Part shown: positions 3,564 through 63,153 of the stretch, in pieces
How the letters are laid out: every line of letters starts with the position of its first letter
Numbering within the stretch: position 1 is the first letter of the stretch
NCBI GenBank assembly: GCA_958295855.1
Contig: OY282383.1
Location: forward strand, 183,178 to 247,177
DNA: 64,000 nucleotides
Origin: an uncultured Poribacteria bacterium
GTDB lineage: Bacteria; Poribacteria; WGA-4E; WGA-3G
Direction: 5' to 3'
Position numbers and translations under genes: made by a program
The notes under the pieces: model-generated
The model's database searches: none
Told to the model about the DNA's origin: nothing
The model's input: only the letters and a program-made list of their open reading frames with translations

Positions 3564-3604
3564 TCCGCGTAATCCGCGTAATCCGCGTAATCCGCGATTC
3601 AGAC
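3564..3604. repeat. CCGCGTAATCCGCG (x3) ATTCAGAC repeat, same family as the Rpn-flanking repeats
   Basis: Direct sequence match to positions 30-76 and 1396-1530. Confidence 0.8.
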
Positions 3605-15819: not shown

Positions 15820-16100
15820 AATAACACTATGTGCAAGTTCTATGCCAACTTCTTAAGGTGCAAGCAAATAAGGCTATTAACCCCCGCTTTGCGGGGGCAA
15901 ATACCACAGATGCTCGCGATTTATTAACATATAAGCAAGTTCTGTGCCAAACCAGTACAGGTTGTGGGCAAACACTGCGGCCCTGCCTGTACTGGTTGTA
16001 CTGGTGATAGGCAGGCACTGCGGAAACCCTGCCTGTCCGTGTACAGGTGATGGGCAGGCACTACGGCACCCCTGCCGTTTTTGGCACAAGCGTGCCACTA
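15820..16100. repeat. Repeat-rich region upstream of the Hsp20 pair: two copies of a 25-bp motif (A[CT]A[CT][AT]A[GT]TGCAAGTTCT[AG]TGCCAA), a palindromic element, and tandem GGCAGGCACTGCGG...CCTGCC units
   Basis: Direct reading of the sequence; possible regulatory region. Confidence 0.5.
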
Positions 16101-26030: not shown

Positions 26031-27116
26031 CTAAGGATAATTGTAGACATTTTCAGACTCTGTGGTGAAGGTATTTACCCCGCTTTGCGGGGCAGATACC
26101 ACCTCATCAGGACTCTGGTTGGCATCCGGTTGTTCGCCCCTCTCACGGTTCGCATTAAATTCGCGCAAAATACAGTTGACAATCTCCTCAGTATACGCTT
26201 GCGCGTCTACATTGTGCTGATTTGCCTCCCAGGCCATCCTCGCTGCTGCCTCGAAGTACTCTGCATGCTTATAGGCATCTAAGATGTCTGTGCCTCGTGA
26301 AAATGTTCCGTGCCCGACCCAATAGAGAATATAGCGCTCTGGGCTGCCGCCATTCTGAAAAAGCCGTAGACTCTCATAAGATAATTCGGGAATACCCGGT
26401 GCCCGCTCTTGCACAAACCCGATGCCGCTAGACGCATCGTATATAATCGGGGTTTCGGGTTCATACCCTCTGAGAAAATTATAAAACAGGTCGGGATGTC
26501 CATGCTCTGTTCGAGAGATTAGGTTCAAGAACTTCGGCTGCAGATGGACAAGTGCATTAAACCCGTGTGGCTCTAGCTGTTCAAAAATGAGCAGGTAGTG
26601 GAACATCTCACTCGTTGGAACGGGTGGTGCAACGCCGTTTGCATGTCGATTCAAAACAGACTGCTCCGGTGTGCCGAAACGCATCCGATAATGCATACCG
26701 TCCGGTTCAACCTCAATGAGCGTTAAATTGAGCGCAGGATGCTCACTCCCAATCATGTCCAAACGCGAACCCGATTTTGTCAGCAGGACGTGTCTCCCGG
26801 CCAGCTCTTTAACGACAATCTGTGGTGGTAATTGGTAACGTGGCGACTCATCATAAGGGATGAGGCATGGGTTCTCAACTGTTTCCGTTAAAACGGCGCC
26901 CATATTGCCAGCAGTTGCCCACAAATATTCGTGAGCGTGTGCATGTGCACCGACCCAGCCCATCTGCCCTATCAAGGTACCACATTCACTGTCAGGTGAA
27001 ATAGGGCGCAGGTCGGGATGATAGCCCCTCTCACGCCAGCGTTCGTAACGATAACTCTGGGGCGGGGGTGCTGTTAACGCATTTATCAAATATGGATTGG
27101 CTAATGTTAAATGCAC
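26031..27116 (-). CDS. Class II aldolase/adducin-like protein (tentative)
   Basis: 361 aa. HAHAHE and GHGTF motifs reminiscent of class II aldolases. The C-terminal tail is encoded by a palindromic element. Confidence 0.35.
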   Translation of the reverse strand: MHLTLANPYLINALTAPPPQSYRYERWRERGYHPDLRPISPDSECGTLIGQMGWVGAHAHAHEYLWATAGNMGAVLTETVENPCLIPYDESPRYQLPPQIVVKELAGRHVLLTKSGSRLDMIGSEHPALNLTLIEVEPDGMHYRMRFGTPEQSVLNRHANGVAPPVPTSEMFHYLLIFEQLEPHGFNALVHLQPKFLNLISRTEHGHPDLFYNFLRGYEPETPIIYDASSGIGFVQERAPGIPELSYESLRLFQNGGSPERYILYWVGHGTFSRGTDILDAYKHAEYFEAAARMAWEANQHNVDAQAYTEEIVNCILREFNANRERGEQPDANQSPDEVVSAPQSGVNTFTTESENVYNYP

Positions 27117-27176: not shown

Positions 27177-27790
27177 GATAGCAAGCTTTTCGTCATTCCT
27201 TGCGGAGTAATCAGGTTGCAAGACGCATCGCGCAATGCACTGTAGATCTCGTCGGAGGTTTCTGATGCCTTAATTGTTTGTAGGGGCAGTGCCTTGTGCC
27301 TGCCCTTCCCCTCCGAATCGCAACACTTTTACAAAAAAGTTGAATATTCCGCTGACATGTGGTAAAATTCGTATTTTCGTCATTCCTTGCGGAGAATTCA
27401 GGTCGCAAGACGCATCTGGCAATGCACTGTAGATCTCGTCGGAGGTTTCTGATGCCTTAATTGTTTGTAGGGGCAGTGCCTTGTGCCTGCCCTTCCCCTC
27501 CGAATCGCAACACTCTTACAAAAAAGTCGAATATTCCGCTGACATGTGGTAAAATTCGCCTTTTCGTCATTCCTTGCGGAGTAATCAGGTTGCAAGACGC
27601 ATCTGGCGCTGCACTGTAGCTCTCGTCGGAGGTTTCTGATGCCTTAATTGTTTGTAGGGGCAGTGCCTTGTGCCTGCCCTTCCCCTCCGAATCGCAACAC
27701 TTTTACAAAAAAGTTGAATATTCCGCTGACATGTGGTAAAATTTGCGGCGTAATGGCATTAACCCCCTGCAAAGCAGGGGCAAATACCCT
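27177..27790 (+). repeat. Three tandem copies of a composite unit of about 184 bp, then a palindromic element
   Basis: Tandem periodicity starting at about 27177, 27361 and 27545. Module order: TTTTCGTCATTCCTTGCGGAGTAATCAG; CTGTAGATCTCGTCGGAGGTTTC; GGGCAGTGCCTTGTGCCTGCCC; promoter-like TTGAATATTCCGCTGACATGTGGTAAAAT. Confidence 0.9.
27714..27742 (+). promoter_or_regulatory. Promoter-like element TTGAAT, 17-bp spacer, TGgTAAAAT (extended -10); promoter-proximal copy of three
   Basis: Identical elements at about 27346-27374 and 27530-27558. Oriented toward fumC. Confidence 0.5.
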
Positions 27791-29399: not shown

Positions 29400-29752
29400 G
29401 ATTTTTCATTTAGGGTAATGCCCCGCAAAGCGGGGAATCACCCTGTCACCTGTGTTGCGACGTGCATTCAGATGTAACCTTAGCCCCAGCGGGGCGACAT
29501 GTGTATAGCCGCGCATGCCGACCCTCCTCCTTAGCCCCAGCGGGGCGACAGGTGCTAAGGGTGCATAAGAAACCTCCGACGACATCTACTGTAGCGGCAG
29601 TGCCTTGTGCCTGCCCATCTACATCGTCAGAACACTCCTGCCAATGGTATTTGCCCCTGCTTTGCAGGGGTTTCATACCAAGTTGTGAATGGCCAATGAA
29701 CAACTTTTTTATTTCTTACTTATGCTGATTACTCCGCAAGGAAAGACAAAAA
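29400..29752. repeat. Mosaic of intergenic repeat modules (palindromic element, GCCCCAGCGGGGC hairpin x2, GGCAGTGCCTTGTGCCTGCC, CTCCGCAAGGAAAGACAAAAA)
   Basis: Module families recur across the window. Confidence 0.8.
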
Positions 29753-32700
29753 TTAGTCATCATCGTCACTTGCGGTATCAAGCGGTTGTCCCTGATAGGC
29801 AACTTCTATGTTCTGGAAGTCGGAGAAGCCGCTTCCCGCTGGGATAAGCCTACCGAGGATGACGTTTTCTTTTAGCCCGAAGAGCCTGTCGGTTTGACCG
29901 CTCACTGCCGCGTCTGTGAGCACTTTGGTCGTCTGCTGGAAGGAGGCCGCTGAGATAAAACTATCTGTGCTCAAGGAGGCTTTGCTGATGCTCTGGAGTA
30001 TGGGTTCTCCTGTGGCGGGTGTGCCGCCTGCGGTGTCGATGGCACTGTTTTGACGCTGGAACTTGTCGCGGGCGACTTCTTCGTTCGGGTAGAAGGCTGT
30101 ATCGCCGGACTCGGTGACGCGTATCTTTGTCAGCATCTGCCGGACGATGGCTTCGATATGCTTGTCGTTGATGACTCTTGCACCGTAGACTTTCTGGACT
30201 TCATCGACAAGGTATGCCCACACGGCTTCTTCGCCTTCGACGGGTACGCCGTTTATGAGGGTACGCCCGATTCTTAAAATATCGTGCGGGTTGAGGAATC
30301 CATCTGTGAGCGGTTGGCCTGCATCTACCCAGTCGCCTTCGGTGACTCGCCGTTTTTCATCAGGGATGGCATAGACTCTGCTGGTATGCCCTTCATCTAT
30401 GATGCGGTATGTGGGTACGCCTGCCTTGGTGCCTACGGCTTGTACGTGTCCCTCAATTTCGGCGATTTCTGCGGCATTTTCTCGCTTGGGACGCCGGGCT
30501 TCAAACAGTTCTGTGACGCGGGGTATGCCTGCTACGATGTCTCGGTTCGCGGTTTTCTCATGCAGTTCTGCGAGGGTGTCTTCTGCATCAATGCTATCCC
30601 CTTCTTCGACGGAGAAGGAGTAACCGAGAGGTATGAGATGCGGCACGTAAGCACCCTGACTGTTCACGATTTCGATATGCATGCGCATGTCGAGCTCGGC
30701 TGTTTCAAAGCCGGCGTATTGTGCAAAAGTTGTCTTGTATGCTTCTTCAGTCAATACCTCGCCGACGGTATGCCCACAATTGGGATGGAAGACATCCGTG
30801 ACGGTGTAGGTTTTCCGCTGGTTCTCCTTCTGTAGCTTGCGGTATTCCTTTTCGCCTAGAATGTGCCCAGGGTCGAACTGAGGGACAGAGGAATCTGTCC
30901 TTTCGTCCCGGGTGACCTGATTGACGCGTTCGACATCAAACGCTTTGTACTGCCGCTGGTATGATCGGTATTCCTTTTCAGTTAACTCGGTTCCGACTTC
31001 CAACTGCAGGTCGGGGTGATGTACACTAACGACGACATATAGACTCGTGAATTTTCCCGAAATTTCGGGATCTTCTTTACGCAACGACTTATACTGGGCT
31101 TCGCTTAAGCGCTGTCGCGATTCGGAGATCGCTCCTACCTCCTCGTAGTAGCGTTGCACTTCAAACCCCTTGTACTGTCGGCGGTGTGCGCTTGACGCTT
31201 TTTGTGTCAACAATTCACCAGGCTGTAGCGGGCACTCGGGGTGATTGACAGCAGTCACGTGATAGAGTCGTTCCGCCTCAAAGGGTCCCATTGTATTAAC
31301 AGCGGAGGAGGCTGTGATACCTGGGAAAGTGGCTCTGAACTGTTTCTCCTCACCATCGCTGAGCAAGTCACCTGGTTTGAGGGTGCAGTCCGGATGATGC
31401 ACATGGATGACGCGGTGCTTCAACTTTTGAACATTGAACCCAGGAAACCGCTTGTGTTCCTTACGTGCCGCGTCTGTTGTTAGCACGTCGCCGACCTTGA
31501 GGGGGAACTCGGGGTGATAGACTGCGGTGACAACATGCTTCGGGGCATCCAATTCTTTAACCTGAAACGCCCGATACTTTAGACGGGCCTCCTCGTAGGC
31601 GCGTTCGGTTAATTCTCTTCCAATCTGATACTCGGCTGGATCCAGCCCCGAGTTTGCGTCTCCTGTTATCTCAGTATGCATAACGTAGACAGGCTTTGAC
31701 TCCAAGTCAAAGGGGGTAAGCCACGAGGCGATGTCTGAAGCCGACACTTCCTCTCCAACCTCATAAGGGAAGTCTGCCCGAGTGCGCTCGGTTATGCGGT
31801 AGACACGTTCGAAGTGAGAATCCCGGGCGGAGTGGGTATGTTCCCCGCTTTGCGGGGAGAAGGGTTTTGCCCTGCTTTGCAGGGAATTACCCTCTTCACC
31901 CTTTTCAGACTCGCCTCCCTGGGTCGCGCCGACTGAGGCAAGTTCTGTCTCTGTAAAGAGCTGCCCTGTCTCTGAATCTCGGGAAAGCCATTCACCATCA
32001 AACCCTGTGTGCATCTTGGCCTTCAACTCATCTGCTTTTTCGAGTGTGAGCAGCTCCCTCGGTGTAACAGCAATGTCGGGGTGAAGCACTTGCGTCACAC
32101 GGTATTTCTGCGTTACAAAGCGGCCGAAGCCGTATTGCTTCCGGGCCTTGTCATATTGTGCCTGTGACAGCCGGGCGCCTTCCTGAAGGTGGCAGGCATG
32201 CTCCGATACAGCTGCCTCACTTAACTTTTCAACATGTTGAAAAAACGTCTCTTCAATCTCAGGCTCAAGTGAATCAATCTCACTGACGAGGGTTTCACTT
32301 GGTTGACGTACATTGCCGTATTTTTCTGTAAATTGTCGATACTCATCAGAGCTGCTGAACTTTTGGTGGCCTTCTCCGGGTTGTTCCGCATGGCAACCAA
32401 TGCAGAGTGCCGCCAGGTCCCTGGGTTCGTTATGCTTCGTTCCCCGCCGATGGTGGACATGGAGAAACTGTTTATCATCCTTAAGGGCTACACCACACTG
32501 CTCGCACTGCCAACCGGCCCTATCACGATATTTCTCTGAGAGAAACTTCCAAGCGTCTGATGAATAATCAAAATGCTGTCCGAGAACGCTATAACCGTTA
32601 TTTACTTTAGCACGCTCCGATACAGCAGTTACCTCATACTGCCAGGTCTCGGTCTCAAAGCCTTTATAACGTTGTGCGTTTTCAGTGTACTGCTTCTCAC

Positions 32701-35700
32701 TCAACAACTCACCTGGGAGCAATGGGCACTCAGGGTGGTTAACCTGGGTGACCTTGTAAGCAGGTGCATCAAGCTTTGCGCTAGAGGGATGAACCCCCTG
32801 CTTTGCAGCGGCAGACTGACCGATTGTGTTCATCATATCTACTTTGTTGTCGGTTTCCCATGCAGAAGATGGACTGTCGGAGCCGATGGCTATCCAGAGA
32901 TTTCCTTCTTGGCGCACTGTGCTGCCGGGGCGGAAATCGCGGAACCGCACGGTTCCCTTAACTTTCGCAAGAACTTTGCGCTGGCGCGCTTCTGAAATGG
33001 CCTCAACAGCCCCACCGGTGTGGAACGTCCGCATCGTTAGCTGCGTGCCGGGTTCACCAATGGATTGTGCAGCGATGATACCGATGGCTTCGCCGACATT
33101 GACAAGATTGTTGGTCGTCAAATCAATGCCGTAGCACTTTGAACAGACACCTTCGTCGGCTTGACAGGTGAGTACGGAACGCACTTTTACGACTTTGATG
33201 CGCGCGGCCTCAATCTGTGTGGCTTCTTCCTCGGATATCAATTGCTCGCTGGCTTTAAGCACTTGGCCTGTATCTGGGTGGATGATGTCTTCGGCGGCGG
33301 TTCGCCCTCTGATTTTAAATGCAAGGCTGCCGCCTTCAGTTGTAAACTTCTGAATGCTGTTCAGTGTCTTGCAATCTTCAGTGGTAACGCGGACATCTTG
33401 GGCAACATCTACTAACTTCCGGGTTAGATACCCGGATGCGGCGGTTTTCATTGCGGTATCTACTAAGCCTTTGCGCGAGCCGTAGGTGGAGTTGAAATAG
33501 TCTAACACATCTAAGCCTTCGCGATAGGAGGCGGTTATCGGTGTAGAGAGAATGTTGTTGCTCTGATCGGATTTCAAGCCGACAATTGCACTAATTTGCA
33601 TAAATGGGTTCTTCCGCGCGCGCGCTCCACTATCCGCCATAATATGCACTGGACTGAAACCTTTGACGGTTTCAGCGCCTATCTCTACGCCATCAGCATC
33701 TACGTTTGGATGAATCTTACGCGAGTCGCCGCGTTCAACGAGTGATGTCTCTAATTCGGGTAAGGCGGAGAACATCCTTTTCTCAACCTGTTCAATCGCT
33801 TCGAGCCAGATGCGAATTCGCTCATTCTCTAACTCGCCTGTGTCTGTAGCAGAGGTTGTCGCAAGGAGGTTATCCACTTCGGACTGGGCTTTGCTCACTA
33901 AAGCATCCCGGTTGTCGGGCCTGAGGTAATCTGTTATGCAGGGCGATATGCCGCTCAGGGTTGCATAGTGGAAGGCAAGTTTTTGGATTTCCTCAAGCAT
34001 GTTGACTGTAACACGCGTTCCTAATTCGTTGAAACAGTCGTAGACTATCTTGGATAACTCGCGTCCGCTGGCTTCGGCGTTGAAAAAAGGCACCTGCTGC
34101 CGGGAATGCTCGTCTATCCACGCATCCTCGGACGAACTTCCTTTGATTTTCTTGAGTTTATCTGGCAGTACTTCGTTGAAAATAACTCTGCCTACTGTCG
34201 TGAGTATGGGGCTGGCTGTGGCACGCGGCCTGCTACTTTCGTGCTTGCTACTTTCCCCAAAAAAGAGTTGGAGGCTATCGTGTAGTTTGAGTTGGCCGGC
34301 TGCGTGCGCGGCGATAACTTCTTCTGTATTTGAATAGCGACGGTGGTACCAAGGTTTTTGGCGGAGCTCATCCAGTCGCGATTCGGAGATGGCTCCTACC
34401 GATTGCGCGATAAACTCATGCAACAACTTTGCATCCTCAGCATGTCCCGGCAGTTCCTTCGTCAGGAAACTCGGCCCTAGCACCATGTCAAGCTCCGGTA
34501 CTGCAATTGGACCGCCGTGGGATGGCTTGAGGATATTATGACTGCTGAGCATTAGCAGCTTTGCCTCTGCCTGTGCCTCTACTGTGAGTGGCACATGCAC
34601 TGCCATCTGGTCGCCGTCAAAATCGGCGTTGAATGCCTTACACACAAGGGGAGGTATCCGTATCGATTTGCCTTCTACTAACACTGGCAGAAATGCCTGA
34701 ATGCCAAGCCGATGCAACGTGGGTGGGCGATTCAGTAACACGGGATGGTCGGCTATGACTTCCTCTAAGACTTCCCAGACAGGTGAATTGGACTCCACAT
34801 GCTCGGCGATGTGCTTCGCACGTTTTATCGTCTGCGTATAGTTATACGCTTGCAGCCTCTCGATAATAAATGGCTTGAACAATTCTACGGCCATTCGCTT
34901 GGGCAAACCGCATTGGTGGAGTCCCAGTTCGGGGCCGACGACGATGACGCTTCGCCCAGAGTAATCGACGCGTTTTCCGAGCAGATTCTGACGGAAGCGC
35001 CCGACTTTGCCTTTGAGGATATCGGAGAGTGACTTGAGCGGTCGGTTGCCAGGGCCGGCAACACGCCTGCCGTGCCGCCCGTTGTCAAAGAAGGCATCAA
35101 CGGCTTCTTGTAACATCCGTTTTTCGTTGCGCAAAATGACTTCGGGGGAACGGAGCTGTATTAACTTACGCAGCCGGTTGTTACGATTGATGACGCGGCG
35201 ATACAGATCGTTCAAGTCGCTTGTGGCAAAACGCCCGCCTTCGAGGGAAACAAGGGGCCGTAAGTCCGGGGGAATGACGGGTATCACATCCATAATCATC
35301 CACTCGGGGCGCTGTTCAGATGCGGCAAAGTCAGACAACTGTTTGAGCTGTTTGGATATCTTGAGCTTTTTCTGATGGCTTGTTGTTTCCGAAAGCAGTT
35401 CGGTGAGTTTCTCTTTCTCTGCCTGCAGGTCGATGCTGTTCAGAATCTCAGAAATGACTTCGGCGCCAGTCCCTGCGCGAAATTGACCGGGGTACTGGTG
35501 TTTCGCTTGCTCGTATTCTAATTCTGTTAGGACCTGACGCGGCTGCAGCGGACAGTCCGGGTCGCTGACGGATACAACAACAAAGGCTTCAAAATAGATG
35601 ATGCGTTCTACTTGGCGTGAGGAGAGATTACAAAAGGTGCCGATTCGTGACGGTATGCCTTTGAAGAACCAGATGTGGGAAACTGGGGCGGCGAGCTGGA

Positions 35701-36058: not shown

Positions 36059-36462
36059 ATTTTCGCTATTCCTTGCGGTGTAATCAGGTTGTAAGGTTCA
36101 TCGAGGGTTACACTGTAGATCTCGCTGGAGGTTTTCGCTATTCCTTGCGGAGTAATCAGGTTTTCGCTATTCCTTGCGGTGTAATCAGGTTGTAAGGTTC
36201 ATCGAGGGTTACACTGTAGATCTCGCTGGAGGTTTTCGCTAAAAGGGTTCGAAGGTGCCAAGAATTTTGACACCTTGTTCCTGTCTGTAATTTGCGGAGA
36301 ATTCAGCATGGGCAGGCACAAGGCACTGCCCCTACAGATACAAGCCTTGCATCAAAAACCTCCGACGAGATCTCTAATGCGATGACAACTACATAATGCC
36401 AATGGTATTTGCCCCTGCTTTGCAGGGGTTTTATACCAATTCGAGTTCTCCGCAAGGAATGA
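36059..36462. repeat. rpoB-rpoC intergenic mosaic: two copies of TTTTCGCTATTCCTTGCGGTGTAATCAGGTTGTAAGGTTCATCGAGGGTTACACTGTAGATCTCGCTGGAGG, plus GGGCAGGCACAAGGCACTGCCCCTACAG and a palindromic element
   Basis: Direct reading of the sequence. Provides the rpoC SD and the rpoB stop codon. Confidence 0.85.
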
Positions 36463-39400
36463 CTAAAGGTCTGAGTCGCGATTGAGTGTCACGTTCAGAC
36501 CAAGGCTCTGGAGTTCTCGCACGAGCACGTTAAACGATTCGGGCGTGCCGGGCGGGTTTGGGTTCAGCCCCTTAACTATGGATTCATAGATTTCCGATCT
36601 GCCTGCCACGTCGTCCGATTTGAGGGTGAGCATCTCCTGGAGCGTATGCGCAGCGCCATAGGCTTCAAGTGCCCACACTTCCATTTCACCGAGTCGCTGG
36701 CCGCCATGTTGCGCCTTACCGCCCAGAGGTTGCTGGGTGACAAGCGAGTAAGGGCCTGTGGAGCGCGCATGCATCTTGTCTGCTACAAGATGGTTCAGTT
36801 TAAGGAAATAGACGTAGCCGACTGTGACTTCTTGGGCAAAGGGTTCACCTGTCCTGCCATCATAAAGTACGCTTTTCCCTGTCTTTTTACTGCGTTCGGG
36901 GAGGTTCGTTTTTCCGAGCAGTTCAAAGATTTCAGTCTCTGTTGCTCCGTCAAATACGGGGGATTCTGCGCGTATGCCTAATGCGTGGCACGCCCATCCG
37001 AGGTGAATTTCTAAGATTTGCGCGACATTCATTCGTGATGGGACGCCTAAGGGGTTCAGCACGATTTCAACGGGTGTGCCATCTGGCATATAGGGCATAT
37101 CTTCAGCTGGCAGGATTTTTGCCACAACGCCTTTATTGCCATAACGGCCTGCCATTTTATCGCCAACGGAAATGGGACGTTTACTCGCGATATAAACTTT
37201 GACGCGTTTGATAACACCGGGTTTGAGTTCATCTCCCATCTCCAATTGCTTGAGGGCGCGTTCTTTCTCCTCTGTGTAGGCGGCTATCCTGCCTTGCGCC
37301 ATCTCCTCAACGCGGCGAATGTGTTCCATTGCGGCAGCATCCGTTACGCAAACGGATGATAACGCTATGCCAGGTGTGTCTAATAGCTCAGCTGTCACTG
37401 TGTCACCCGCAGCAAACGACGTTGGGGCAGCACTTTGTTCGGAATTCCCGCCCTGCCCCTTTGCCTCTTCACTGCTTTGCTTCCCGCCCGGTTTCCCATC
37501 ATGGGCAACCAGGAGGATAGCCTCCGCGTTGGTATGTTCCCCACTTTGCTTCCCGCCCTGCCCCTTTGCCTCTTCACCCTTTTCCCCATCGTGCCTAACC
37601 TGTGCCACTACAGGCAATGCAAGTTCACAACCAAGGAGCATGTTGCGTATTTCTTCGTCCTTCCGGTGGCGTATGGATGCGATGTGCGTCCTCCACGTCT
37701 CCTCGCTCTGCTTACGTTTGGATTCATAGCGCAATTCTTCAATTCTTGATGCGCCTGTTTCCGAACGTGTCCAGCCGCCGCGGCGTTGCAATCCATCTGG
37801 CTTTCGGGAAAACACTTTGACATCAATTACTATGCCTTCAACGCCGGGGCGGATGTAGGTGGAGGCATCGCGGACATCTCGTGCTTTTTCGCCGAAGATG
37901 GCGTGCAGCAGTTTTTCTTCGGGGCCATACTCACTTTCGCCTTTGGGCGTAATTTTTCCCACGAGGATACTGCCGGCACTGACAACACTGCCAACGCGGA
38001 TGATGCCTTCCTCATCAAGCTGCAAAAGGCGTTGCTCGCTCATGTTCGGAATGTCGCGCGTTATCTCCTCTGGGCCCACCTTCGTTTCGCGTGCCTCTAC
38101 TTCGACTTCTTCAATATGAATAGAGGTAAAGGTGTCCTTGCGGATGAGGGTTTCACTAATGAGGATAGAGTCCTCATAGTTGTGCCCGCCCCAGGGCATA
38201 TAGGCGCACAAGATATTTCTGCCGAGGGCGAGTTCACCTCCGTCGGTGGATGTGCCGTCGGCAATAACATCGCCTGCTTGCACTTTATCGCCTACAGAAA
38301 CGATTGGATGCTGGTGGATACAGGTGCCACTGTTACTGCGCTTGAAAGTCTGGAGTTTGTACTGGTCGTATCCCATTTCGCTAAATCCATGCTCGCCGGT
38401 GTCGGTATGCAGCACTTCGCCGGTGTGTATGAGGATTTCGTCAGCGGAGATACTTGCGACGGTGCCGCTGCGGATGGCGGTTCGGAGGGCTCCGGAGTCC
38501 AGTGCGGCGCGGGTTTCCATGCCTGTAGCTACAAGAGGGGCTTCCGGACGGATGAGGGGGACGGCTTGGCGTTGGTGGTTGGCTCCCATCAATGCGCGGT
38601 TCGCGTCTTCGTGCTCGAGGAACGGAACAAGGGAGGCAGAAACGCCAACTATCTGTTGCGGCGCGATGCCAACATAGTCAATTTCAGTGGATTTCGTTTC
38701 TTTGAATTCTATGACGTCGCCCTCTTTGGCATCGTTCCAGCGTCGCATGGCACGGACAGAATAGCCATGGCGGTTTTTCTTTCCTGCTTTATGGAAAGCA
38801 TCTGCGGATGCAATGGTACAGCCCAGCTCTGCATCTGCAGTCAAATACTCAATCCGGTCAGTGAGCTTACCCTCAACAATGACTTGATAGGGCGTTTCCA
38901 AGAACCCGTAGCGATTGACGCGTGCGAATGTAGCGAGCGATACAATCAGCCCGATTGAGGGCCCTTCTGGGGTTTCAAGCGGACATACACGCCCGAAATG
39001 CGTTTCGTGAACGTCGCGGACAGCTGCGGTTGCCCTGTCGCGATGTAGTCCGCCGGGCCCGATTGCGGAGATGCGGCGTTTGTGCGTCAACTCATCCAGG
39101 GGATTGATTTGTTGCATAAACTGCGAGAGTTGGTTAGAGCCAAAAAACTCACGGAGTGCCATCATGAGTGGTTTGGGGTTCACCAATGCGCCGGGTGTTG
39201 CTTTGGCGCGGTCCTTGAGGATATCGACAGCACTGAGGCGTTCGCGTGTCGTTCTACGGATTTGGAATAATCCCATTCTGAATTGGTTTTCTAGCAGTTC
39301 CCCGATAACTCTGACGCGCCGATTTTCGAGATTGTCCTGGTCGTCCTTGGGTACAAGTTTGTTCTGCACCTGTATGAGGTATGCCAGTGTTGCGGTGATA

Positions 39401-41013: not shown

Positions 41014-41039
41014 TTGATGCGGTCTCCTTTTGGTACCGG

Positions 41040-41739
41040 ACTCTGGTGGTGGGCAGGCACAAGGCACTGCCCGTACGGCGCAATGAAATCCCGAGAATAA
41101 AAAAGTTGTTTGCTTTTCGCGCACAACTTGGCTTGCAAGCTTCGCCAAAAAGTGGTGGGCAGGCACAAGGCACTGCCCCTACGGACGCGCCGCCTTTTAA
41201 CCTATTGGCAATAGCATAACAGAATATTATACACTATAATTAGGGGAAAGTCAAGAAAAAATGCATTTTTGTTATTCCTTGCGGAGTAATCAGCATAAGT
41301 AAGAAATAAAAAAGTTGTTCATAAAAATTCACAACTTGGTATGAAACCCCTGCAAAGCAGGGGCAAATACCATTGGCAAGACACATCCAGCAATGCACTG
41401 TAGCTCTCGTTGGAGGTTTCTTATGCAACCTTTCGGGCCAATGGCTGCCCGCCCACCCGTTTCCGTATTGTGGCTAAAAAAGGGGGTGCTTGTTTTTGAC
41501 GTTAATCAAGCTAGGGCATTTAGTTTTCAGTAGTTTTGAGTAAGGGGCGTGGTTGGGTGAGGATTAAGAATTTTCGTCTATGCCTAGTATTTTGATTGGA
41601 TTATGTGGTGTTAATGGCATTGGAGCTCTCGTCGGAGGTTTTGGTCTATGTCTAGTATAATGTGGTATAAAGGTTGACACACCACGTTAACTTGGTATAC
41701 TGTATTAAGGTACGGAAACCCCGTGCTACGGGAGACAAA
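41040..41739. repeat. Repeat-dense intergenic region (GGGCAGGCACAAGGCACTGCCC x2, palindromic element, CCCGCCCACCCGTTTCCG, GGGCATTTAGTTTTCAG, and others)
   Basis: Module families shared with other intergenic regions. Confidence 0.8.
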
Positions 41740-42270: not shown

Positions 42271-43574
42271 ACAGATATTATGAGAGAAACCTCACCGCTA
42301 GTCCCAGTGACTCGGCTGGAAGACAAGAAGGGTGGAAGAAGGGAAAAAACACCGCCCCCCAACCTTACTGTCTTCCATACTGTCTGCCATTTTTCCAATC
42401 TTCAAAAATACTAGTCTGTTGCATCATTTGTGCTTTTTGGTTAGTGGTATTTACCCCTGCTTTGCAGGGGCAGATACCCGGTCAAGGTTTTGCCGGGGCG
42501 CAATCGACTGAGTCACCCCGAGCGCGGGCGCGCGAGCTCGGCATCTATATCGGGAGCCTTCCTACCGGTGAGTACAACGCAATCACCGACGTGCCCGGGG
42601 TCAAAGTAGGACACGTCACCCTGAAGCAGGGGGAGTCAATTCGCACTGGTGTCACCGCTATCCTTCCGCGCGATGATATTTGGGAAGCGCGTCTGTTTGG
42701 CGCAGCACATACCATTCATGGCAACGGTGAAGCCACCGGCATCGCCCGAATTAATCAAGCCGGGTGGATTGAGTCCCCGATTTTGTTGACAAATACCCTG
42801 AGTGTCGGGGCTGTTCACGATGGTGTTGTCCGGTACATTGTCAAGCGGTATCCGGACAATAACATTGTGCTGCCGATTGTGGCAGAGTGTTACGATGGCG
42901 GCTTGAACGACATCAGCGGGCTCCATGTAACTGCACAGCATGCCATTGAATCCATTGAGAACGCCACCTCCGGTAAGGTAGCAGAGGGCAGTGTAGGCGG
43001 CGGTACAGGTATGCGATGCTACGGGTTCAAAGCCGGTATCGGTACTGCCTCGCGGGTACTCCCACCAAACAGGGGCGGATGGAAAGTCGGGGTACTCGTC
43101 AACGCAAACGGCGGACGACGACATCAGTTACGCATTGATGGCGTGCCGGTGGGTAAGGTACTTGATGATGCCCAGCAGAACCCAGGCAGGGACGGCTCGT
43201 TTATCATCGTTATCGCGACGAACGCGCCGTTAACGCATCGGCAGTTGAAACAGCTGGCGATGCGTGCAACGCACGGCCTCGCCCGCACAGGCACACCAAG
43301 CACAGATGGCAGTGGTGAGTTCGTTATCGCGTTTTCTACCGCCAATATTTTTCCACGCGGCACAGAAACAGGTACCTTTCACATCCAGATGGTAGTCAAC
43401 TCACGCTTGAATTCTCTCTTTCAAGCTGTCATTGAGGCAACAGAGGAGGCTATTGTGAATTCAATGACGATGGCAACCACAACCACTGGCCGCAACGGCA
43501 GAACAATGCACGCGATTCCATTGGATGGGTTGCAACAGGTGATGCAGCAGTTTTCGTCATTCCTTGCGGAGTAA
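42267..43574 (+). CDS. Peptidase family S58 / P1 (DmpA-like L-aminopeptidase / D-Ala esterase-amidase family)
   Basis: 435 aa with a DmpA/ArgJ-like fold signature. A palindromic element sits inside the N-terminal hydrophobic region. The C-terminal FSSFLAE* is encoded by a repeat module. Confidence 0.55.
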   Translation: MNRYYERNLTASPSDSAGRQEGWKKGKNTAPQPYCLPYCLPFFQSSKILVCCIICAFWLVVFTPALQGQIPGQGFAGAQSTESPRARARELGIYIGSLPTGEYNAITDVPGVKVGHVTLKQGESIRTGVTAILPRDDIWEARLFGAAHTIHGNGEATGIARINQAGWIESPILLTNTLSVGAVHDGVVRYIVKRYPDNNIVLPIVAECYDGGLNDISGLHVTAQHAIESIENATSGKVAEGSVGGGTGMRCYGFKAGIGTASRVLPPNRGGWKVGVLVNANGGRRHQLRIDGVPVGKVLDDAQQNPGRDGSFIIVIATNAPLTHRQLKQLAMRATHGLARTGTPSTDGSGEFVIAFSTANIFPRGTETGTFHIQMVVNSRLNSLFQAVIEATEEAIVNSMTMATTTTGRNGRTMHAIPLDGLQQVMQQFSSFLAE

Positions 43575-43826
43575 TCAGCATGGGTATGAAACCCCTGCTT
43601 TGCAGGGGCAAATACCATTGGCAGGATAGTTCTGACGGGCAGGCACAAGGCACTGCCCCTACAGTAGATCTCGTCGGAGGTTTCTGATGCAAGTTTTTTA
43701 ATGCTTAATTAGCAGGGAACACACTACAACTCATGTCGGAGGTTTCTGACGCAATGTTCGTAGGGGTGGTGCCTTGTGCCTACCCACATACTGGAGTATA
43801 TCGCGATTCGGACATCGCTCCTACGT
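43555..43826. repeat. Intergenic mosaic (TTTTCGTCATTCCTTGCGGAGTAATCAG, palindromic element, GGGCAGGCACAAGGCACTGCCCCTACAG x2, GATTCGGACATCGCTCCTACG)
   Basis: Module families shared across the window. Confidence 0.85.
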
Positions 43827-45953
43827 CTACCTCTGTCCGCCGGGGGCAAGTGCCGCCGGTACCACCTCATGATGTGAAAACTCAAGCGTGAACGCCCCGC
43901 GCCCCTGCGTCATTGAGCGGAGCTGGGTTGTATATTGGAACGTTTTTGCTAACGGGATAAAAGCACTGACAAAGTTGAACGCACCTTGCGTACCGCTTTC
44001 GTTAATCTGGGCGCGGCGTGCATTCAGGTCGCCGATAACCTTTCCGACGTGTTCATCTGGTGCCGTGATATGTATCCGCATAATCGGTTCAAGGAGCAGG
44101 GGTTTCGCCGTTCTGACCGCGTTTTCAAAGGCGAGCACAGCCGCCGCCTCAAAGGCGACTTCTGAGGAATCTGTTGAATGACAGGAACCACCGGTGAGCG
44201 TTACCTTGATGTCTTGCAGTGGGTATCCGATGAGCGCACCGCTTCCCATCGCACCTTTGAGCGCGTTCTGAATGGCAGGAATGTATTGCCGTGGAATCTG
44301 CGTCTCATCCGTCTCATCCGCAAACTGAAACCCGCCGTCTCGTTCCAATGGGGCAACAGTGAGTACCACATCGCCATAAATGCCTTCCTCATCTGTTTTA
44401 TGGATGTGTGTGCCTCGCGCTTCAGCAGGCGTGCTGATAGTCTCCCGATATGCCACCTGTAGTTTGCTCACGCGCGCGTTCACACCAAACTCGCGGCGCA
44501 TCCGGTCGGTGAGAATTTCTAGGTGGAGTTCGCCCATCCCAGAGATAATCCGTTGCCCCGTCTCTTTATCAATACCGACGGTGAACGTCGGGTCTTCGTC
44601 CATTAATTTTTGGAGTGTCTCCTCCAGTGTGTCTGCATCACTGGCGCGTTCAGGTTCAATTGCGATGGAGATAACGGGCTGTGGAAAAGTGATGGATTCT
44701 AACAGGATAGGATGCTTCGCATCTGCCAATGTATCGCCTGTTTTCGTATCCCGAAGCCCGACGAGGGCAACGATGTCTCCTGCGTAAGCGGCATCACAAA
44801 CCGCCTCTTTGTTGGCATGCATCTGTAGAATGCGGTTCACCCGCTCCCGTTTGCCGGAACCGACGTTATAGATGACTTCCCCACGTTTCAGGGTGCCTGA
44901 ATAGATACGGCAATAGACCAGTTTGTCCACAGTGGGGTGGCTTGCGACTTTAAAGGCTAACGCTGCAAACGGGGCAGTATCATCTGAGTAGCGGGTGGTA
45001 TTTGCCCCCGCTTTGCGGGGCAGATTCTTGGTGGCTTTATTGTGGCTGGAGGTTGTTCTCACAGAAGAGGTATTTGGCACTTCACCTTCAATTGGGGGTA
45101 GGTCGACAGGCGAAGGCAGAAAATCAATGATTGCATCAAGCAGGGGTTGAACGCCCCGATTTTTGAGGGAACTTCCGCATAATACAGGGACTAACGTTCC
45201 CTTCAAAGTAGCAGTACGAATGCCTGCCACTAACTCGGCGGAGGTTATCTCCTGGCCCTCCAAGTATTTTTCAAGCAACGCGTCCTCTTCAACAACGACG
45301 CTCTCAAAAAGGGTTTCTCGGGCGAGTGCCACTTCGGCGTGAAACTCATGTGGAATTTCGGATTCTTGATAGGTCTGCCCGAGGTTTGCCGCATCCCAAT
45401 GCATCGCCTTCTGTCTTACCAGGTCAACAACCCCTGCGAAATCGGTTCCCTCACCAATTGGCAATTGGAGGGGCACCGGATTGGTGCCGAGTCGCTCCTT
45501 CATCATCTCAAGCACGCGAACGAAATTGGCACCGACCCTATCCATCTTATTGACGAAGATGATGCGCGGTACATCGTAGCGTTCAGCTTGATGCCAGACA
45601 GTTTCTGACTGTGGCTCCACACCGCCAACAGCACAAAAAAGTGCAACAGCACCATCTAACACGCGCAAGGAACGTTCCACTTCTACTGTGAAATCGACAT
45701 GGCCGGGCGTATCAATCAGGTGAATCGCGTGTTCTCTCCAGAAACAGGTTGTTGCGGCGGCGGTAATCGTCACCCCGCGTTCTCGTTCTTGCGCCATCCA
45801 ATCCATTTCTGCAGTGCCGTCATCTACTGCACCAATCTTATGCTTTTTGCCAGTATAGAAGAGAATTCGTTCGGTTGTGGTTGTTTTGCCTGCATCGATG
45901 TGCGCTGTAATACCGATGTTGCGCACGTTTTCAATAGAATATTCGCGTGCCAT
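43827..45953 (-). CDS. fusA: Elongation factor G (fusA-type; could be a paralog, as no rpsL/rpsG precede it)
   Basis: 708 aa with canonical G-domain motifs: [21 protein letters not shown]. Carries an in-frame insertion from a palindromic element in the G' region. Confidence 0.9.
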
Positions 45954-47102: not shown

Positions 47103-47275
47103 TCTTCGGACTGGCGACTCCTGCCTTTAGGTAGAAGAGGAAAGTCCGCCTCCTGTTAAATTCCCTTTTCAGCATGTGGTATTTAACTCTGCAAAGCAGG
47201 AGCAGATACCCTGTGCCGTTTTTGGGGAGTATACTACAAAAACAACTATCCTTCAAGCCCTAAATTGTACAAACG

Positions 47276-47392
47276 GGTCACGGCACGCGGAGGGCTCCTA
47301 CGACTTTGGTCACGGCACGCGGAGCGTGCCTACTACTTTGTGCCTACTACTTTTGGTCACGGCACGCGGAGCGTGCCTACTACTGTTTCCAT
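47276..47392. repeat. Tandem hairpin modules (GGTCACGGCACGCGGAGCGTGCCTACTACT x3, one degenerate) overlapping the 3' end of the DUF1156 gene
   Basis: Same family as 3611-3642 and 14592-14702. Encodes VVGTLRVP plus the stop codon. Confidence 0.85.
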
Positions 47393-50164: not shown

Positions 50165-50551
50165 AGTGCTTTCTGCGCGCCCCTGAAGCCGGGCGGAGAC
50201 AGGGCTCCGCCCTTACAATTCAAAGCCATTTGATATGCGCCTGCGCGGGCAGGGCGGACCGCATCAGATGCGCCTGGTTTGTGCTCCGCGCAGAGTAATC
50301 AGGAAGTTTAACCACTATTGAAAATAGTGGCAAACGTCAGGATAGTTCTGACGGGCAGGCACAAGGCACTGTTTCCCCTACAGAGTAGATGTCGTTAGAA
50401 GTTTCTTATGCAACCTTAATTAGCAGGGAGTACTCTAGAACTAATAAGAAACCCGATTTTGAACCGGGTATCCGCCCCTGCTTTGCAGGGGTAAATACCT
50501 CATGCGGAAAAATCGGAGCAGAAACCGAATTGATGAAAGACTGCTTGTTAA
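50165..50551. repeat. Intergenic mosaic (CCACTATTGAAAATAGTGG hairpin, GGGCAGGCACAAGGCACTG, CCTTAATTAGCAGGGAG, palindromic element, CATGCGGAAAAATCGGAGCAGAAACCG)
   Basis: Module families shared with 46000-46090 and 57360-57480. Confidence 0.8.
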
Positions 50552-53900: not shown

Positions 53901-54070
53901 TTTCTGAAATGTAAGAGCAGATTTTCATATCTGCCGTTGCCGGCATGCCGGCTAAAAAATGTGAGAAATAAAAAAATTGCAAAGGTATTTACCCCTGTTT
54001 ATAGGGGCAGATACCCCATTTGGCCATTCACAACTTAGTGAAAATAGACAGAAAAAAGGCAGTTGCGGTA

Positions 54071-57359: not shown

Positions 57360-57775
57360 CAATTCGGTTTCCGCTCCGATTTTTCCGCATGAGGTATTAA
57401 CCCCTGCAAAGCAGGGGCGGATACCCGGTTCAAAATCGGGTTTCCGGCAAGTTTGTAGCGTGTTCCCTGCTAATTAAGGTTGCATAAGAAACCTCGGACG
57501 AGAGCTACTGTAGCGGCAGTGCCTTGTGCCTGCCCATCTACATCGTCAGAACACTCCTGCAACCTGATTACTCCGCAAGGAATAACAAAAAGACGAGATC
57601 TGCCACAACGTCACAACAACGAATAATTAAGCGTTAAAATACTTGCATAAGAAACCTCCGACGAGAGCTACTGTAGCGGCAGTGCCTTGTGCCTGCCCAT
57701 CTACATCGTCAGAACACTCCTGCAACCTGATTACTCTGCAAGGAATGACAAAAAACTCTGCAAGGAATGACAAAA
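57360..57775. repeat. Intergenic mosaic between fabH and fabD, including two copies of GAAACCTC(C/G)GACGAGAGCTACTGTAGCGGCAGTGCCTTGTGCCTGCCCATCTACATCGTCAGAACACTCCTGCAACCTGATTACTC(C/T)GCAAGGAAT(A/G)ACAAAAA
   Basis: Duplicate unit of about 110 bp at 57478-57590 and 57645-57758. The last copy supplies the fabD SD (AAGGAATGACAAAAATG). Confidence 0.85.
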
Positions 57776-58756
57776 ATGCAACACGCCTTTATTTTTCCAG
57801 GACAAGGTTCGCAAAAAGTTGGCATGGGCGCTGAATTGGCACGAACCTATCCAATTGCCGAGGACGTTTTTGATGAGGCAGAGACAGTTTTAGGCAGACC
57901 ACTACGGCAGCTCTGTTTCCACGGCCCTGAGGCAGAACTAAAGCGGACAGAAAACACGCAACTTGCCATTTTGGCCTGTAGTGTTGCAACGTTGCGGGTG
58001 TTAGCACAATTAGGGGTTGTGCCGAAAGTAGTTGCAGGGCACAGTTTGGGAGAGTACTCCGCGCTCGTGGCGGCCGGTGTCCTTGAATTTGCCGATGCAT
58101 TGCAGTTAGTGTGCGCACGCGCACACTTCATGGCAGAAGCCGGTGCCAATGGTATAAACCCCTGTTTACAGGGGCAAATACCACCGCAGAACGGCACCAT
58201 GGCAGCAATCCTCGGCATGGAAACGGAACAACTCCAAAATCTTTGTGAGAAAGCTAATGGTGTTGTTAACATCGCCAATTACAACTGCCCCGGGCAATTG
58301 GTAATTTCCGGAGAAGTTGATGCTGTCAACCATGTTATTGCGCTCGCCAAGGGTGAAATCGGCGCAAGACGCTGTCGCACTTTGCCCGTAAGTGGCGCGT
58401 TTCACTCACCGTTGATGGCACCTGCACAACAAAAGTTCGGCGAGGCACTGAATGCAGTGACGTTGCATCCGCCTCAAGTCGCTATCGCGATGAACGTAAC
58501 AGGCGAGTTTGCCACAGATGCAGATAATATCCGAAGCCTCTTGTTTCAACAGATAACGCAACCCGTTCAGTGGGAGAAATCTCTGCACACTATGGCGAAG
58601 GCCGGCATCTCACATTTTGTGGAGGTTGGCCCGGGGAAAGTCTTGTGTGGCTTAGTGAACCGGACGCTCCGTGGCAGCAGTACCGCACATATTGAAGATA
58701 TCGACAGTCTTGAGGTTTTTCGTCATTCCTTGCGGAGTAATCAGGACGCAAGATAG
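57776..58756 (+). CDS. fabD: Malonyl-CoA:ACP transacylase
   Basis: ORF 57767..58756. Start set at MQHAFIFPGQGSQ. GHSLGEYSA active site. In-frame palindromic element at 58151-58182. The last 12 codons come from a repeat module. Confidence 0.9.
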   Translation: MQHAFIFPGQGSQKVGMGAELARTYPIAEDVFDEAETVLGRPLRQLCFHGPEAELKRTENTQLAILACSVATLRVLAQLGVVPKVVAGHSLGEYSALVAAGVLEFADALQLVCARAHFMAEAGANGINPCLQGQIPPQNGTMAAILGMETEQLQNLCEKANGVVNIANYNCPGQLVISGEVDAVNHVIALAKGEIGARRCRTLPVSGAFHSPLMAPAQQKFGEALNAVTLHPPQVAIAMNVTGEFATDADNIRSLLFQQITQPVQWEKSLHTMAKAGISHFVEVGPGKVLCGLVNRTLRGSSTAHIEDIDSLEVFRHSLRSNQDAR

Positions 58757-59075
58757 CTCCCACAATACACTGTAGATCTCGTCGGAGGTTTTCGTCATTC
58801 CTTGCGGAGTAATCAGCATGGGTATGAAACCCCTGCTTTGCAGGGGCAAATACCATTGGCAAGATAGTTCTCACAATACACTGTAGATCTCGTCGGAGGT
58901 TTTCGTCATTCCTTGCGGAGTAATCAGCATGGGTATGAAACCCCTGCTTTGCAGGGGCAAATACCATTGGCAAGATAGTTCTCACAATACACGGTAAATC
59001 TCGTCGGAGGTTTTCGTCATTCCTTGCATGAGAAATCTCCGACGAGATCTGCCACAACGTCACAACTACAACCTT
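58717..59075. repeat. Tandem composite repeats of about 113 bp (TTTTCGTCATTCCTTGCGGAGTAATCAGCATGGGTATGAAACCCCTGCTTTGCAGGGGCAAATACCATTGGCAAGATAGTTCTCACAATACACTGTAGATCTCGTCGGAGG), two full copies plus partials
   Basis: Unit starts at 58717, 58789, 58902 and 59015. Confidence 0.9.
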
Positions 59076-59108
59076 AGAACTAGGCAATGACAAAAGATTA
59101 GGAACGAC

Positions 59109-59846: not shown

Positions 59847-59944
59847 TGGTATCTGCCCCTATAAACAGGGGTAAATACCTTTACTGATATAGCCCTAAAT
59901 CCTGCCTGTAAAAGGCAGACAAAGAGGAGATCAAATAACCGATT

Positions 59945-60181: not shown

Positions 60182-60322
60182 CGTCACATTTGACGTATGG
60201 GCAGTGCCACAGTTGCCAATAACCCAACGAAGTTGGGCTATTGCCTTGTGCCTGCCCGCAACTGAACTGGCAATTGCCCCTGCTTTGCAGGGGTTAATAC
60301 CACTAAAAAAAGGATCCGTCTC

Positions 60323-61564: not shown

Positions 61565-61704
61565 GAGCCATCTCCGAGTGGCATTTAGCCCCTGCAAAGC
61601 AGGAGTATTATCCTTATCGCGACTTAGGATGACATCCATAATCAAGGCCCACTAATTGTTATCTCTGGAAACCTCGGTGGTGATGCCAAACCATTGGAGA
61701 CTCT

Positions 61705-62371: not shown

Positions 62372-62643
62372 TTACAACAAAGAGCAATGTTTTTTCCACG
62401 GGTCCCAACTATATGAAGCCGGTAAATATGGTTTTTCTAATCTCCATGAAGAGCACCGGAGTTACAAATAAAGGAGCCGCGTGAGTCCTGAATCAACAAG
62501 ACTTCGTAAGAGTTTTGTAGTACACGCTCAAAAATACGCTTGATACATAGACAAAAAATCAGGAATCTCCGACGAGATTAAAAATGCCATTACCACTACA
62601 TAACGCAGTCAACGCACTAGGCATAGACAAAAAACTCGCTAAG

Positions 62644-63153
62644 ATGACGGTAGAAGAATTCCTTGAAAGCGGCTTAGAGGGATATGAATACGTGAAAGGA
62701 GAATTAGTGCCGATGCCGCCTACCTCATTAGAACACGGGGATATTAGTCTAAACCTCCTTTTGCCTTTAGGTTCATATTGTCGTGAAAATCAACTCGGGC
62801 GTGTCTATAGCTCAGATACAGGCTTCCGAGTCGGCGAACGGGTACTGATGCCAGACATAGCTTTCATCTCAACAGACCGGCTTCCGACTGACCGGAGCAA
62901 AGCTTCCCCGGTTCCCCCAGACCTCGCCGTTGAGGTAGTTTCTCGGACAGATGCATTGCACAGTGTTGAGGAAAAAGCATTTGCCTACCTAGAGGCAGGC
63001 ACACAACTCGTATGGGTGCTTAAGCCACGGTCAAAAACAGTGACGGTGTATCGTTCGGAAACAGACATCACGCTGCTCACACGAAATGACACTCTCACCG
63101 GTGAGAATGTCATCAAAGGGTTTTCTTGTCGGGTAGCCGAAATTTTCCAATAA
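62644..63153 (+). CDS. Uma2-family (DUF820) PD-(D/E)xK endonuclease
   Basis: ORF 62584..63153. Its first 20 codons lie in a repeat copy, so the start is set at MTVEEFLESG. Family hallmarks: PDIAFIS...PDLAVEVVS...K. Confidence 0.6.
   Translation: MTVEEFLESGLEGYEYVKGELVPMPPTSLEHGDISLNLLLPLGSYCRENQLGRVYSSDTGFRVGERVLMPDIAFISTDRLPTDRSKASPVPPDLAVEVVSRTDALHSVEEKAFAYLEAGTQLVWVLKPRSKTVTVYRSETDITLLTRNDTLTGENVIKGFSCRVAEIFQ

Follow-up and report, generated by a model that had tools for sequence, protein, structure and literature searches.

An in-frame palindromic repeat in fabD of an uncultured Poribacteria bacterium, one copy of a dispersed hairpin family

We analyzed a 64,000-nucleotide (nt) stretch of DNA from an uncultured Poribacteria bacterium (GenBank assembly GCA_958295855.1, contig OY282383.1, positions 183,178 to 247,177 of the forward strand), referred to here as the window. 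Its fabD gene, which encodes malonyl-CoA:acyl carrier protein (ACP) transacylase (FabD), carries a palindromic hairpin inserted in frame, one of a family of such repeats dispersed through the window. The reading that best explains our observations, to which we assign a probability of about 0.8, is that this is a non-autonomous mobile hairpin, similar to repetitive extragenic palindromes (REPs) and Rickettsia palindromic elements (RPEs), that is tolerated in a hinge loop of the enzyme and is neutral or nearly so.

Results

An initial annotation made from the sequence had placed the palindrome in frame within fabD, between the residues FMAEA and GTMAAILG, where the window protein has 17 residues and E. 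coli FabD five (VPEGT). Both the position and the difference in length were confirmed. Aligning the window protein with PDB chain 1MLA using HMMER opened a single 12-residue gap between E. coli A124 and V125, and DNA alignment with orthologous loci L002, L004 and L006 gave a net gain of exactly 36 nt, or 12 codons, with MAFFT placing the gap at 58150-58185. The palindrome itself is GGTATAAACCCCTGTTTACAGGGGCAAATACC; the codon before it, AAT (58148-58150), gives N, and the peptide across the insert region reads ...AGANGINPCLQGQIPPQNGTMAAILGMETEQLQNLCEK. The features of the gene are:

57776..58756, plus strand: fabD, 326 amino acids (aa) from the ATG at 57776, or 329 aa from the ATG at 57767
58151..58182: palindrome GGTAT-AAA-CCCCTG-TTTA-CAGGGG-CAA-ATACC, in frame in fabD, peptide GINPCLQGQIP
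58146..58186, plus strand: insertion footprint, 41 nt (CCAAT, the palindrome and ACCG) against 5 nt in insert-free orthologues
58159..58174: 16-nt hairpin core CCCCTGTTTACAGGGG, derived in the window genome

In shuffled sequence, 0.00 occurrences of the 32-mer with up to three mismatches are expected, and the core motif CCCCTGNNNNCAGGGG was found four times against an expectation of 0.07. The fabD copy scored 38.9 bits (E 8e-10) against a covariance model (CM) of the family, described below. As a single strand it is predicted to fold into an outer stem (GGTAT/ATACC), a 3x3 internal loop, an inner stem (CCCCTG/CAGGGG) and a 4-nt loop, with folding energies of -9.3 kcal/mol as DNA (z -2.9) and -18.7 kcal/mol as RNA (z -4.0).

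The gene lies in a type II fatty acid synthesis context (fabH-fabD-fabG-acpP-fabF), as seen in the list of open reading frames (ORFs) and in gene tables. Its product is 100% identical to database protein P0254 and matches E. coli FabD (1MLA) over residues 2-299 (phmmer E 9e-69); PF00698 is present on all close FabD homologues, and Foldseek superposed the FabD model on 1MLA with template modelling (TM) scores of 0.85/0.91 and a root-mean-square deviation of 2.3 Å. The catalytic residues Q10 (oxyanion, GQGSQ), S90 (nucleophile, GHSLGE), R115 (malonyl-binding) and H210 occupy invariant columns in an alignment of 121 sequences, and they align with Q11, S92, R117 and H201 of E. coli FabD. The ORF is uninterrupted, with no frameshift or pseudogene signal, and dN/dS among four insert-bearing fabD alleles, with the insert excluded, was 0-0.24. 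An intact ORF, invariant catalytic residues, a dN/dS of about 0.1-0.2 and a confident FabD fold therefore point to a live gene. Judged from these sequence comparisons, fabD with its insert is an intact gene under purifying selection, and FabD most likely still works with the insert in place.

A different repeat module, TTTTCGTCATTCCTTGCGGAGTAATCAG, has reshaped fabD at both ends (57727-57776 and 58717-58756). At the start of the gene, inverted copies of this module reach into the initiation codon; at its end, the module supplies the final ~12 codons (VFRHSLRSNQDAR and the stop). On sister contigs, the fabD ORF continues into the next palindrome (…GYETPA[K/L]QGQIPLAR). The remodelled ends and this read-through could be taken to mean that fabD is a decaying pseudogene, a possibility that the initial annotation had raised, or that the insert is an artefact of assembly or sequencing. 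This view is essentially refuted by the features of the gene described above, and by the recovery of the insert in four contigs that were assembled independently, as well as in a database protein identical to that of the window.

We compared the window sequence with the best 120 database FabD matches. The insert is missing from 119 of these 121 sequences, and its only carriers are the window protein and P0001 (97% identical). In the alignment, the nearest insert-free relatives (P0002-P0004) share 84-90% identity with the window protein and the remainder ~70-75%; thus every relative at or below 90% identity lacks the insert, which disposes of the concern in the initial annotation that the insertion might be conserved in unrelated FabDs. 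Where a source is named among the 120 homologues, it is Candidatus Poribacteria or the sponge Geodia barretti. At 90% identity, the P0001 cluster contains P0254 (the window protein), P0253 (locus L010, on a 3.98-Mb contig) and P0255 (locus L011, on a 27.5-kb contig), which all originate from ENA assembly ERZ19489113, a sponge HiFi metagenome, and all carry the insert. The locus of P0001 itself (L001) also shows +36 nt against L002, L004 and L006. Since every member of this small clade carries the insertion and all other relatives are without it, the insertion happened once and recently, in an ancestor that the window genome shares with three sister genomes or contigs, and was inherited thereafter.

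One of these sister genomes, represented by loci L009 and L010 on the 3.98-Mb contig, has a FabD that is 98% identical to that of the window, whereas its RpoB is only ~92% identical and its RpoC 91% identical over the 56% of the query that aligns best. The discrepancy suggests mosaic ancestry, or recombination among strains that share the sponge.

An AlphaFold2 model built on the 121 sequences reached a mean pLDDT (predicted local distance difference test) of 85.8. Its only long low-confidence segment, residues 126-139 (pLDDT <50), is the insert, which lies between the helix 105-125 that carries the malonyl-binding Arg and the strand 140-146. The insert is thus predicted to form a disordered surface loop in a confident FabD fold. 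In E. coli FabD, an alpha/beta-hydrolase (ABH) subdomain (residues 1-125 and 203-308) and a ferredoxin-like (FL) subdomain (126-202) shift as rigid bodies about their linkers (bioRxiv 10.1101/2020.05.15.098798). With the alignment gap at A124/V125, these published borders place the insert in the first hinge linker. The initial annotation had expected a surface loop following the GHSLGE nucleophile elbow; the surface loop is upheld by the model, whereas the site proved to be the subdomain linker, ~35 residues past GHSLGE and 9-12 residues past the malonyl-binding Arg (R115; R117 in E. coli), and not just after the elbow.

A position exactly at the ABH/FL hinge, which gates the active site of E. 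coli FabD, raises the possibility that the 12-residue loop has been recruited for a role in the protein, such as hinge tuning, substrate gating or partner binding. The insert has also been kept in four lineages, and its frame was held through a later replacement of the hairpin core (see below). We nevertheless regard such a role as distinctly unlikely: the peptide is unconserved (NPCLQG against NPRFAG) in FabDs that are otherwise 97-98% identical, the loop is predicted to be disordered, the element is read elsewhere in different frames that yield unrelated peptides, and 119 of the 121 closest FabDs do without the insert.

The wider repeat family was delimited by regular-expression and repeat searches and then by a CM built from 27 copies, which detected ~24 distinct copies in the window (E 1e-13 to 1e-2). 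The units are 31-34 nt long, with the consensus GGTAT-TTG/TTA-CCCCTGC-WWW-GCAGGGG-spacer-ATACC. Aligned copies start with GGTAT or GGCAT and end with ATACC, and they are flanked by CCAAT, xGT, CATG or variable sequence. The inner stem defines subfamilies with CCCCTGC, CCCCCGC, CCCCGC or the 16-nt core CCCCTG-TTTA-YAGGGG; the last of these groups the fabD copy with those at 53984-54015 and, inverted, 59848-59879. The TTTACA loop variant recognized in the initial annotation therefore corresponds to a real subfamily. MAFFT mis-registered the 16-nt-core subfamily, and pairs were counted in a CM-based alignment. In that alignment, which is fitted to the structure and includes both strands of each palindrome, 92% of stem cells are paired, and one stem position covaries between subfamilies (U-A 27, C-G 10, U-G 2, unpaired 0).

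Although the window is mostly coding, 17-18 of the ~24 copies are intergenic, where they often sit within mosaic arrays of other short modules. The copies outside genes are:

15873..15905: intergenic copy (CM)
27755..27788: intergenic copy upstream of fumC (CM)
29413..29443: intergenic copy, found by CM only
29646..29679: intergenic copy (CM)
36404..36437: intergenic copy in the rpoB-rpoC spacer (CM)
41338..41371: intergenic copy (CM)
43583..43616: intergenic copy (CM)
47178..47210: intergenic copy (CM)
50467..50499: intergenic copy (CM)
53984..54015: intergenic copy upstream of hom, 16-nt-core subfamily, TTTATA in the window and exact TTTACA in L001
56272..56303: intergenic copy upstream of fabH, with two multi-nucleotide alleles among sister genomes
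57393..57425: intergenic copy in the fabH-fabD spacer (CM)
58821..58965: two copies (58821-58854 and 58932-58965) in 111-nt tandem mosaic units downstream of fabD
59848..59879: copy directly after the fabG stop, 16-nt-core subfamily, inverted
60269..60301: intergenic copy in the acpP-fabF spacer (CM)
61581..61613: intergenic copy just past the fabF stop (CM)

The tandem mosaic arrays at 58748-59080 (111-nt units) and 27187-27743 (187-nt units) share the same short modules. A palindrome stands between the modules in one array and none does in the other, so that the two form paralogous filled and empty sites. In L001, the arrays depart from those of the window in copy number.

The sister loci (L001 and L008-L011) are as densely populated by the family as the window, with dozens of copies, whereas the CM found none in the related loci L002-L006 (~41 kb) at E <=1e-3. 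Exact-pattern scans with two patterns returned no match in 185,579 GTDB species genomes, and 0 and 1 match in JGI metagenomes. The single JGI copy lies at 1091-1123 of an unrelated 2.3-kb contig (L007, Ga0180431_10107672) and is a full-length CM match (36.7 bits); it may be a chance match or a distant relative of the family. Rfam held no family for the hairpin or for the other modules of the window, in which it recognized only a tRNA. Also present in the window are hairpin families tagged with GTAG (27280-27305, 57510-57535 and 57673-57698; 14597-14629 and 47305-47384; for example GTAGGGGCAGTGCCTTGTGCCTGCCC and GGTCACGGCACGCGGAGCGTGCCTACTAC). These are classical REP-like elements standing alongside the untagged GGTAT family, and may be the true substrates of a REP-associated tyrosine transposase (RAYT).

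At least six of the ~24 CM-detected copies are coding, and all of these lie at linkers or termini. Besides the copy in fabD, in-gene copies and related inserts are:

44997..45028, minus strand: copy in the gene of an EF-G family GTPase (43827-45953, minus), at the junction of the G domain with domain II
31835..31893, minus strand: two adjacent copies within a variable linker of the rpoC trigger-loop insertion region (gene 29753-36058, 2101 aa)
32786..32821, minus strand: degenerate rpoC copy (...AAKQGVHP...), in frame
37492..37602, minus strand: 37-aa in-frame insert in rpoB (36463-41166), absent from L009 RpoB
26070..26100, minus strand: copy in an Aldolase_II-like gene (26031-27116, minus), C-terminal tail VVSAPQSGVNT
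42446..42478: copy in the 5' part of an S58 peptidase ORF (42267-43574), upstream of the Pfam domain (from residue 104), doubtfully coding

With in-frame copies also in the EF-G gene, rpoC, rpoB and the aldolase-like gene, fabD is therefore not special. In both protein and DNA alignments, the EF-G gene carries an insertion of exactly 36 nt (12 aa) that is missing from the L002 orthologue and shared with L009. The rpoC copies occupy variable linkers within the large insertion downstream of the trigger-loop motif MRTFHTGGA. At the second of the two rpoC sites, 32786, the L009 allele exceeds that of the window by 12 nt, a difference that keeps the gene in frame although the core itself falls in a different one; P0134 and P0135 are without the clean +12-aa copy that L009 carries there. 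The DNA of the rpoB insert (GGTGAAGAGGCAAAGGGGCAGGGCGGGAAGCAAAGTGGGGAACATACC) is a degenerate double-palindrome unit (50 nt) that also occurs in L009 rpoC, which indicates that it passed from one of these RNA polymerase genes to the other, or was copied into each.

The canonical unit is open in five of six frames, and its C4/G4 runs (CCCC giving Pro, GGGG giving Gly) produce Pro...Gly peptides in most frames (NPCLQG, LPRKAG, TPQSG and APQSG); together these properties help explain why insertions are survivable.

A palindrome in a PGA_cap gene of L009 was considered as a recent filled/empty pair and rejected, as the 5' region has been replaced and the coding status is doubtful. In the window, the first ~200 nt of this ORF (~25150-25350) are unique sequence; in L009, the corresponding part (20100-20290) is a composite of repeat modules that includes the palindrome. 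Both versions are open from the same ATG, which is doubtful as the true start. The trigger-loop insertion region of the window RpoC also contains a ~140-aa insert (~32190-32610, residues ~1150-1290) with a CxxC...HH...CxxCH arrangement that resembles an HNH nuclease by eye and gave no Pfam match at E <=0.01. It occurs in RpoCs of more distant Poribacteria (P0137 and P0138) and not in L009, P0134 or P0135.

The hairpin in fabD has changed since it was inserted. Its core is CCCTCGCTTTGCGGGG in L010 and L011, CCCTCGCTTTGCAGGG in L001 and CCCCTGTTTACAGGGG in the window; all three are 16 nt long and have the same arms and flanks. The sister alleles keep an older CGCTTTGCG-type core, and with three lineages against one the window TTTACA core is the derived state, a replacement. 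Alleles differ at 6-7 of the 16 core positions and at 5-11 of the 914 other fabD positions (binomial P ~1e-8, or ~1e-5 allowing for every window position). Such clustering marks a single multi-nucleotide replacement and not accumulated point mutation. The new core equals that of the copy upstream of hom (exactly in L001, with one change in the window), which is a possible conversion donor on sequence grounds, and it is the inverse of the core in the copy just after fabG. Length and frame were both preserved by the swap. Inversion of the ancestral core and correction of one arm were rejected by inspection, since they give the wrong sequence or length. Elsewhere, the copy at 58932 shows a pure loop flip in L001 (TTT against AAA), and whole repeat modules have been gained or lost between the window and L001, which are 97.4% identical over 13 kb. 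We infer that cores are rewritten by short-tract conversion, or by hairpin-templated rewriting, among members of the family, with selection for frame.

Rewriting of this kind, with flipping loops and a 50-nt degenerate unit that one genome has in rpoB and a second has in rpoC, could also be read as a sign that the hairpins are made or copied in place by templated repair, slippage or conversion, with no transposition at all; no transposase was found among the window ORFs, and no target duplication at fabD or EF-G. We consider this very unlikely. Three genes gained +36-nt units with the same architecture, outer arms included, the copy number and polymorphism resemble those of mobile REP and miniature inverted-repeat transposable element (MITE) families, and an origin in place is a far less parsimonious source of a 32-nt two-tier palindrome that matches the family consensus.

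The core alleles also bear on whether the hairpin has been kept in fabD, EF-G, rpoB and rpoC for a role at the level of the nucleic acid. In RNA, it could act as a stem-loop that slows ribosomes at domain boundaries or that affects mRNA stability or processing; in DNA, it could be a site for gyrase or a nucleoid protein, as has been proposed for REPs. The strength of the predicted RNA hairpin, the return of the window allele to a perfect palindrome and the L010/L011 stem, which is kept by a U-G wobble that is good only in RNA, are all compatible with such a role, as are the covariation of stem pairs across the family and the location of in-gene copies at domain boundaries and linkers. Simple tolerance predicts the linker positions equally, however, and covariation is also expected if the spread of the element itself needs a hairpin. 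The stem of the L001 allele is mismatched and weaker (-6.8 kcal/mol as DNA, z -1.9), the outer arms have decayed in the EF-G and rpoC copies, and relatives function without any such hairpins. We therefore consider a nucleic-acid role unlikely.

Discussion

The account that we favor, of a mobile hairpin tolerated in a hinge loop, would run as follows. In a Poribacteria-like sponge symbiont, a lineage-specific family of two-tier hairpins (31-34 nt) has spread across the genome, presumably moved by a trans-acting enzyme. Most copies would land between genes and a minority inside them, where those that survive add whole codons (here 36 nt, 12 aa) at linkers, domain boundaries or termini. The copy in fabD would lengthen the linker between the alpha/beta-hydrolase and ferredoxin-like subdomains and leave the catalytic machinery untouched, with little or no effect on fitness. 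Cores would later change by multi-nucleotide events, both loop flips and whole-core replacements, probably through short-tract conversion, and selection would then filter these changes for length and frame.

Several observations weigh against this account. The ~35 ORFs of the window include neither a RAYT/Y1 gene (PF01797) nor another plausible transposase, the gene tables for L001 and L008-L011 list none either, and no RAYT gene was found in the ~210 kb examined. The conserved GTAG or CGTC tag at one end, by which the two large REP superfamilies are defined, is not found in the family, in which GTAG adjoins only one or two copies. At fabD, a target-site duplication and exact junctions could not be resolved in the orthologue alignment, and no target-site duplication could be resolved for EF-G against its L002 orthologue, because the flanking codons also differ from those of the insert-free orthologues (two codons at fabD). 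Nor could a true empty fabD site at high identity be defined, the nearest insert-free orthologues being only 84-90% identical. In E. coli FabD, the hinge that corresponds to the insert site gates the active site by a motion that is important for catalysis; strict neutrality is thus assumed. Finally, a window allele restored to a perfect hairpin, together with three independent insertions of exactly 36 nt, could hint at something beyond passive tolerance.

These last features could potentially be accommodated if the unit were a 12-codon Pro/Gly cassette, maintained by a transposase-independent copy-and-rewrite process that re-templates frame-preserving hairpins, and if its survival at domain boundaries of essential genes reflected use. 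Such use might take the form, for example, of co-translational pause sites at the FabD hinge, the junction between the G domain and domain II of EF-G and the lineage-specific inserts of RNA polymerase. We regard this scenario as improbable.

The window contains a single transposase-like ORF, YhgA/Transposase_31 (101-1243), which is tied to a different repeat: it is bracketed by arrays of a 9-nt repeat (AATCCGCGT) at 28-63, 1397-1517 and 3564-3596, and it adjoins a Type ISP restriction-modification gene (3613-6720). Gene content varies among relatives at other points of the window. A DUF1156 gene (47357-50164) is absent at the matching position of L002 and was not seen in L004, and a gene for a putative Uma2 endonuclease (62584-63153), which repeat modules adjoin, is present in the window and L001 and missing from L010 and L011.

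The insert in fabD provides a natural test of the additional loop length that an enzyme hinge can accommodate. Because relatives at 84-90% FabD identity are without the family, it can serve as a sharp marker of strain or lineage, and the loop flips, core swaps and module gains and losses among close genomes in one HiFi metagenome make this system suitable for studying how REP-like hairpins evolve. Such inserts can also break short-read assemblies and confuse gene callers, by altering the starts and stops of genes, by producing read-through tails and by leaving fragments of RpoC among the database matches, and annotators of Poribacteria genomes should watch for them.

Compared with E. coli FabD (1MLA, 2G2Z and 6U0J), the window protein has the same fold (TM 0.91), catalytic Gln/Ser/Arg/His residues and operon context. 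It differs in the 12 additional residues at the hinge linker equivalent to A124/V125 and in a C-terminal tail encoded by another repeat module.

A full-text search of the literature on palindromic repeats in Poribacteria returned only mentions of the CRISPR type. MITEs are 50-500 bp long, have terminal inverted repeats and target duplications and derive from insertion sequences, whereas the window unit is smaller and no parent insertion sequence was seen. The family resembles REP doublets mobilized by RAYTs (REPIN/RAYT systems) and bacterial interspersed mosaic elements in that hairpin structure is conserved over sequence, as reflected in covariation, and in that copies are vertically inherited, lineage-specific and found in mosaic arrays; unlike these, its copies are mostly singletons and not inverted doublets, and no RAYT was seen in ~210 kb. 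As expected of REPs, its units of 31-34 nt are imperfect palindromes within the 20-40 bp range, in high and mostly extragenic copy (~24 per 64 kb).

Di Nocera et al. (2013, PMC3733652) list short REPs that lie within known genes of several bacteria, including Opitutus terrae and, as RPE-4 and RPE-6, R. conorii. These are likewise imperfect hairpins of 20-40 bp that are high in copy number, mostly intergenic and often close to ORF ends, and that occasionally occur as singles or dimers in known genes, where they encode ~10-30 aa. The window family differs from them in its GGTAT/ATACC arms and the absence of a conserved GTAG/CGTC tag, and its targets are fabD, EF-G, rpoB and rpoC, whereas those of intragenic REPs are mainly replication and repair genes.

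The hallmark of RPEs (Ogata et al. 2000; PMC10969869, PMC3733652) is that these palindromes insert in frame in genes that stay functional; they were first reported in R. conorii as elements of ~150 bp (PMC10969869). Like RPEs, the hairpins described here are dispersed palindromes confined to a single host-associated lineage, with a sizeable minority in frame in functional housekeeping genes at tolerated positions. An RPE of ~150 bp would encode several tens of residues, whereas the window unit of 31-34 nt adds 12; the peptides of the window family vary with frame, and its host is a Poribacteria-like sponge symbiont and not a Rickettsia. Our findings thus extend the colonization of coding genes by palindromic repeats, best known from Rickettsia, to a phylum of sponge symbionts, in which it reaches essential genes for fatty acid synthesis, translation elongation and both large subunits of RNA polymerase.

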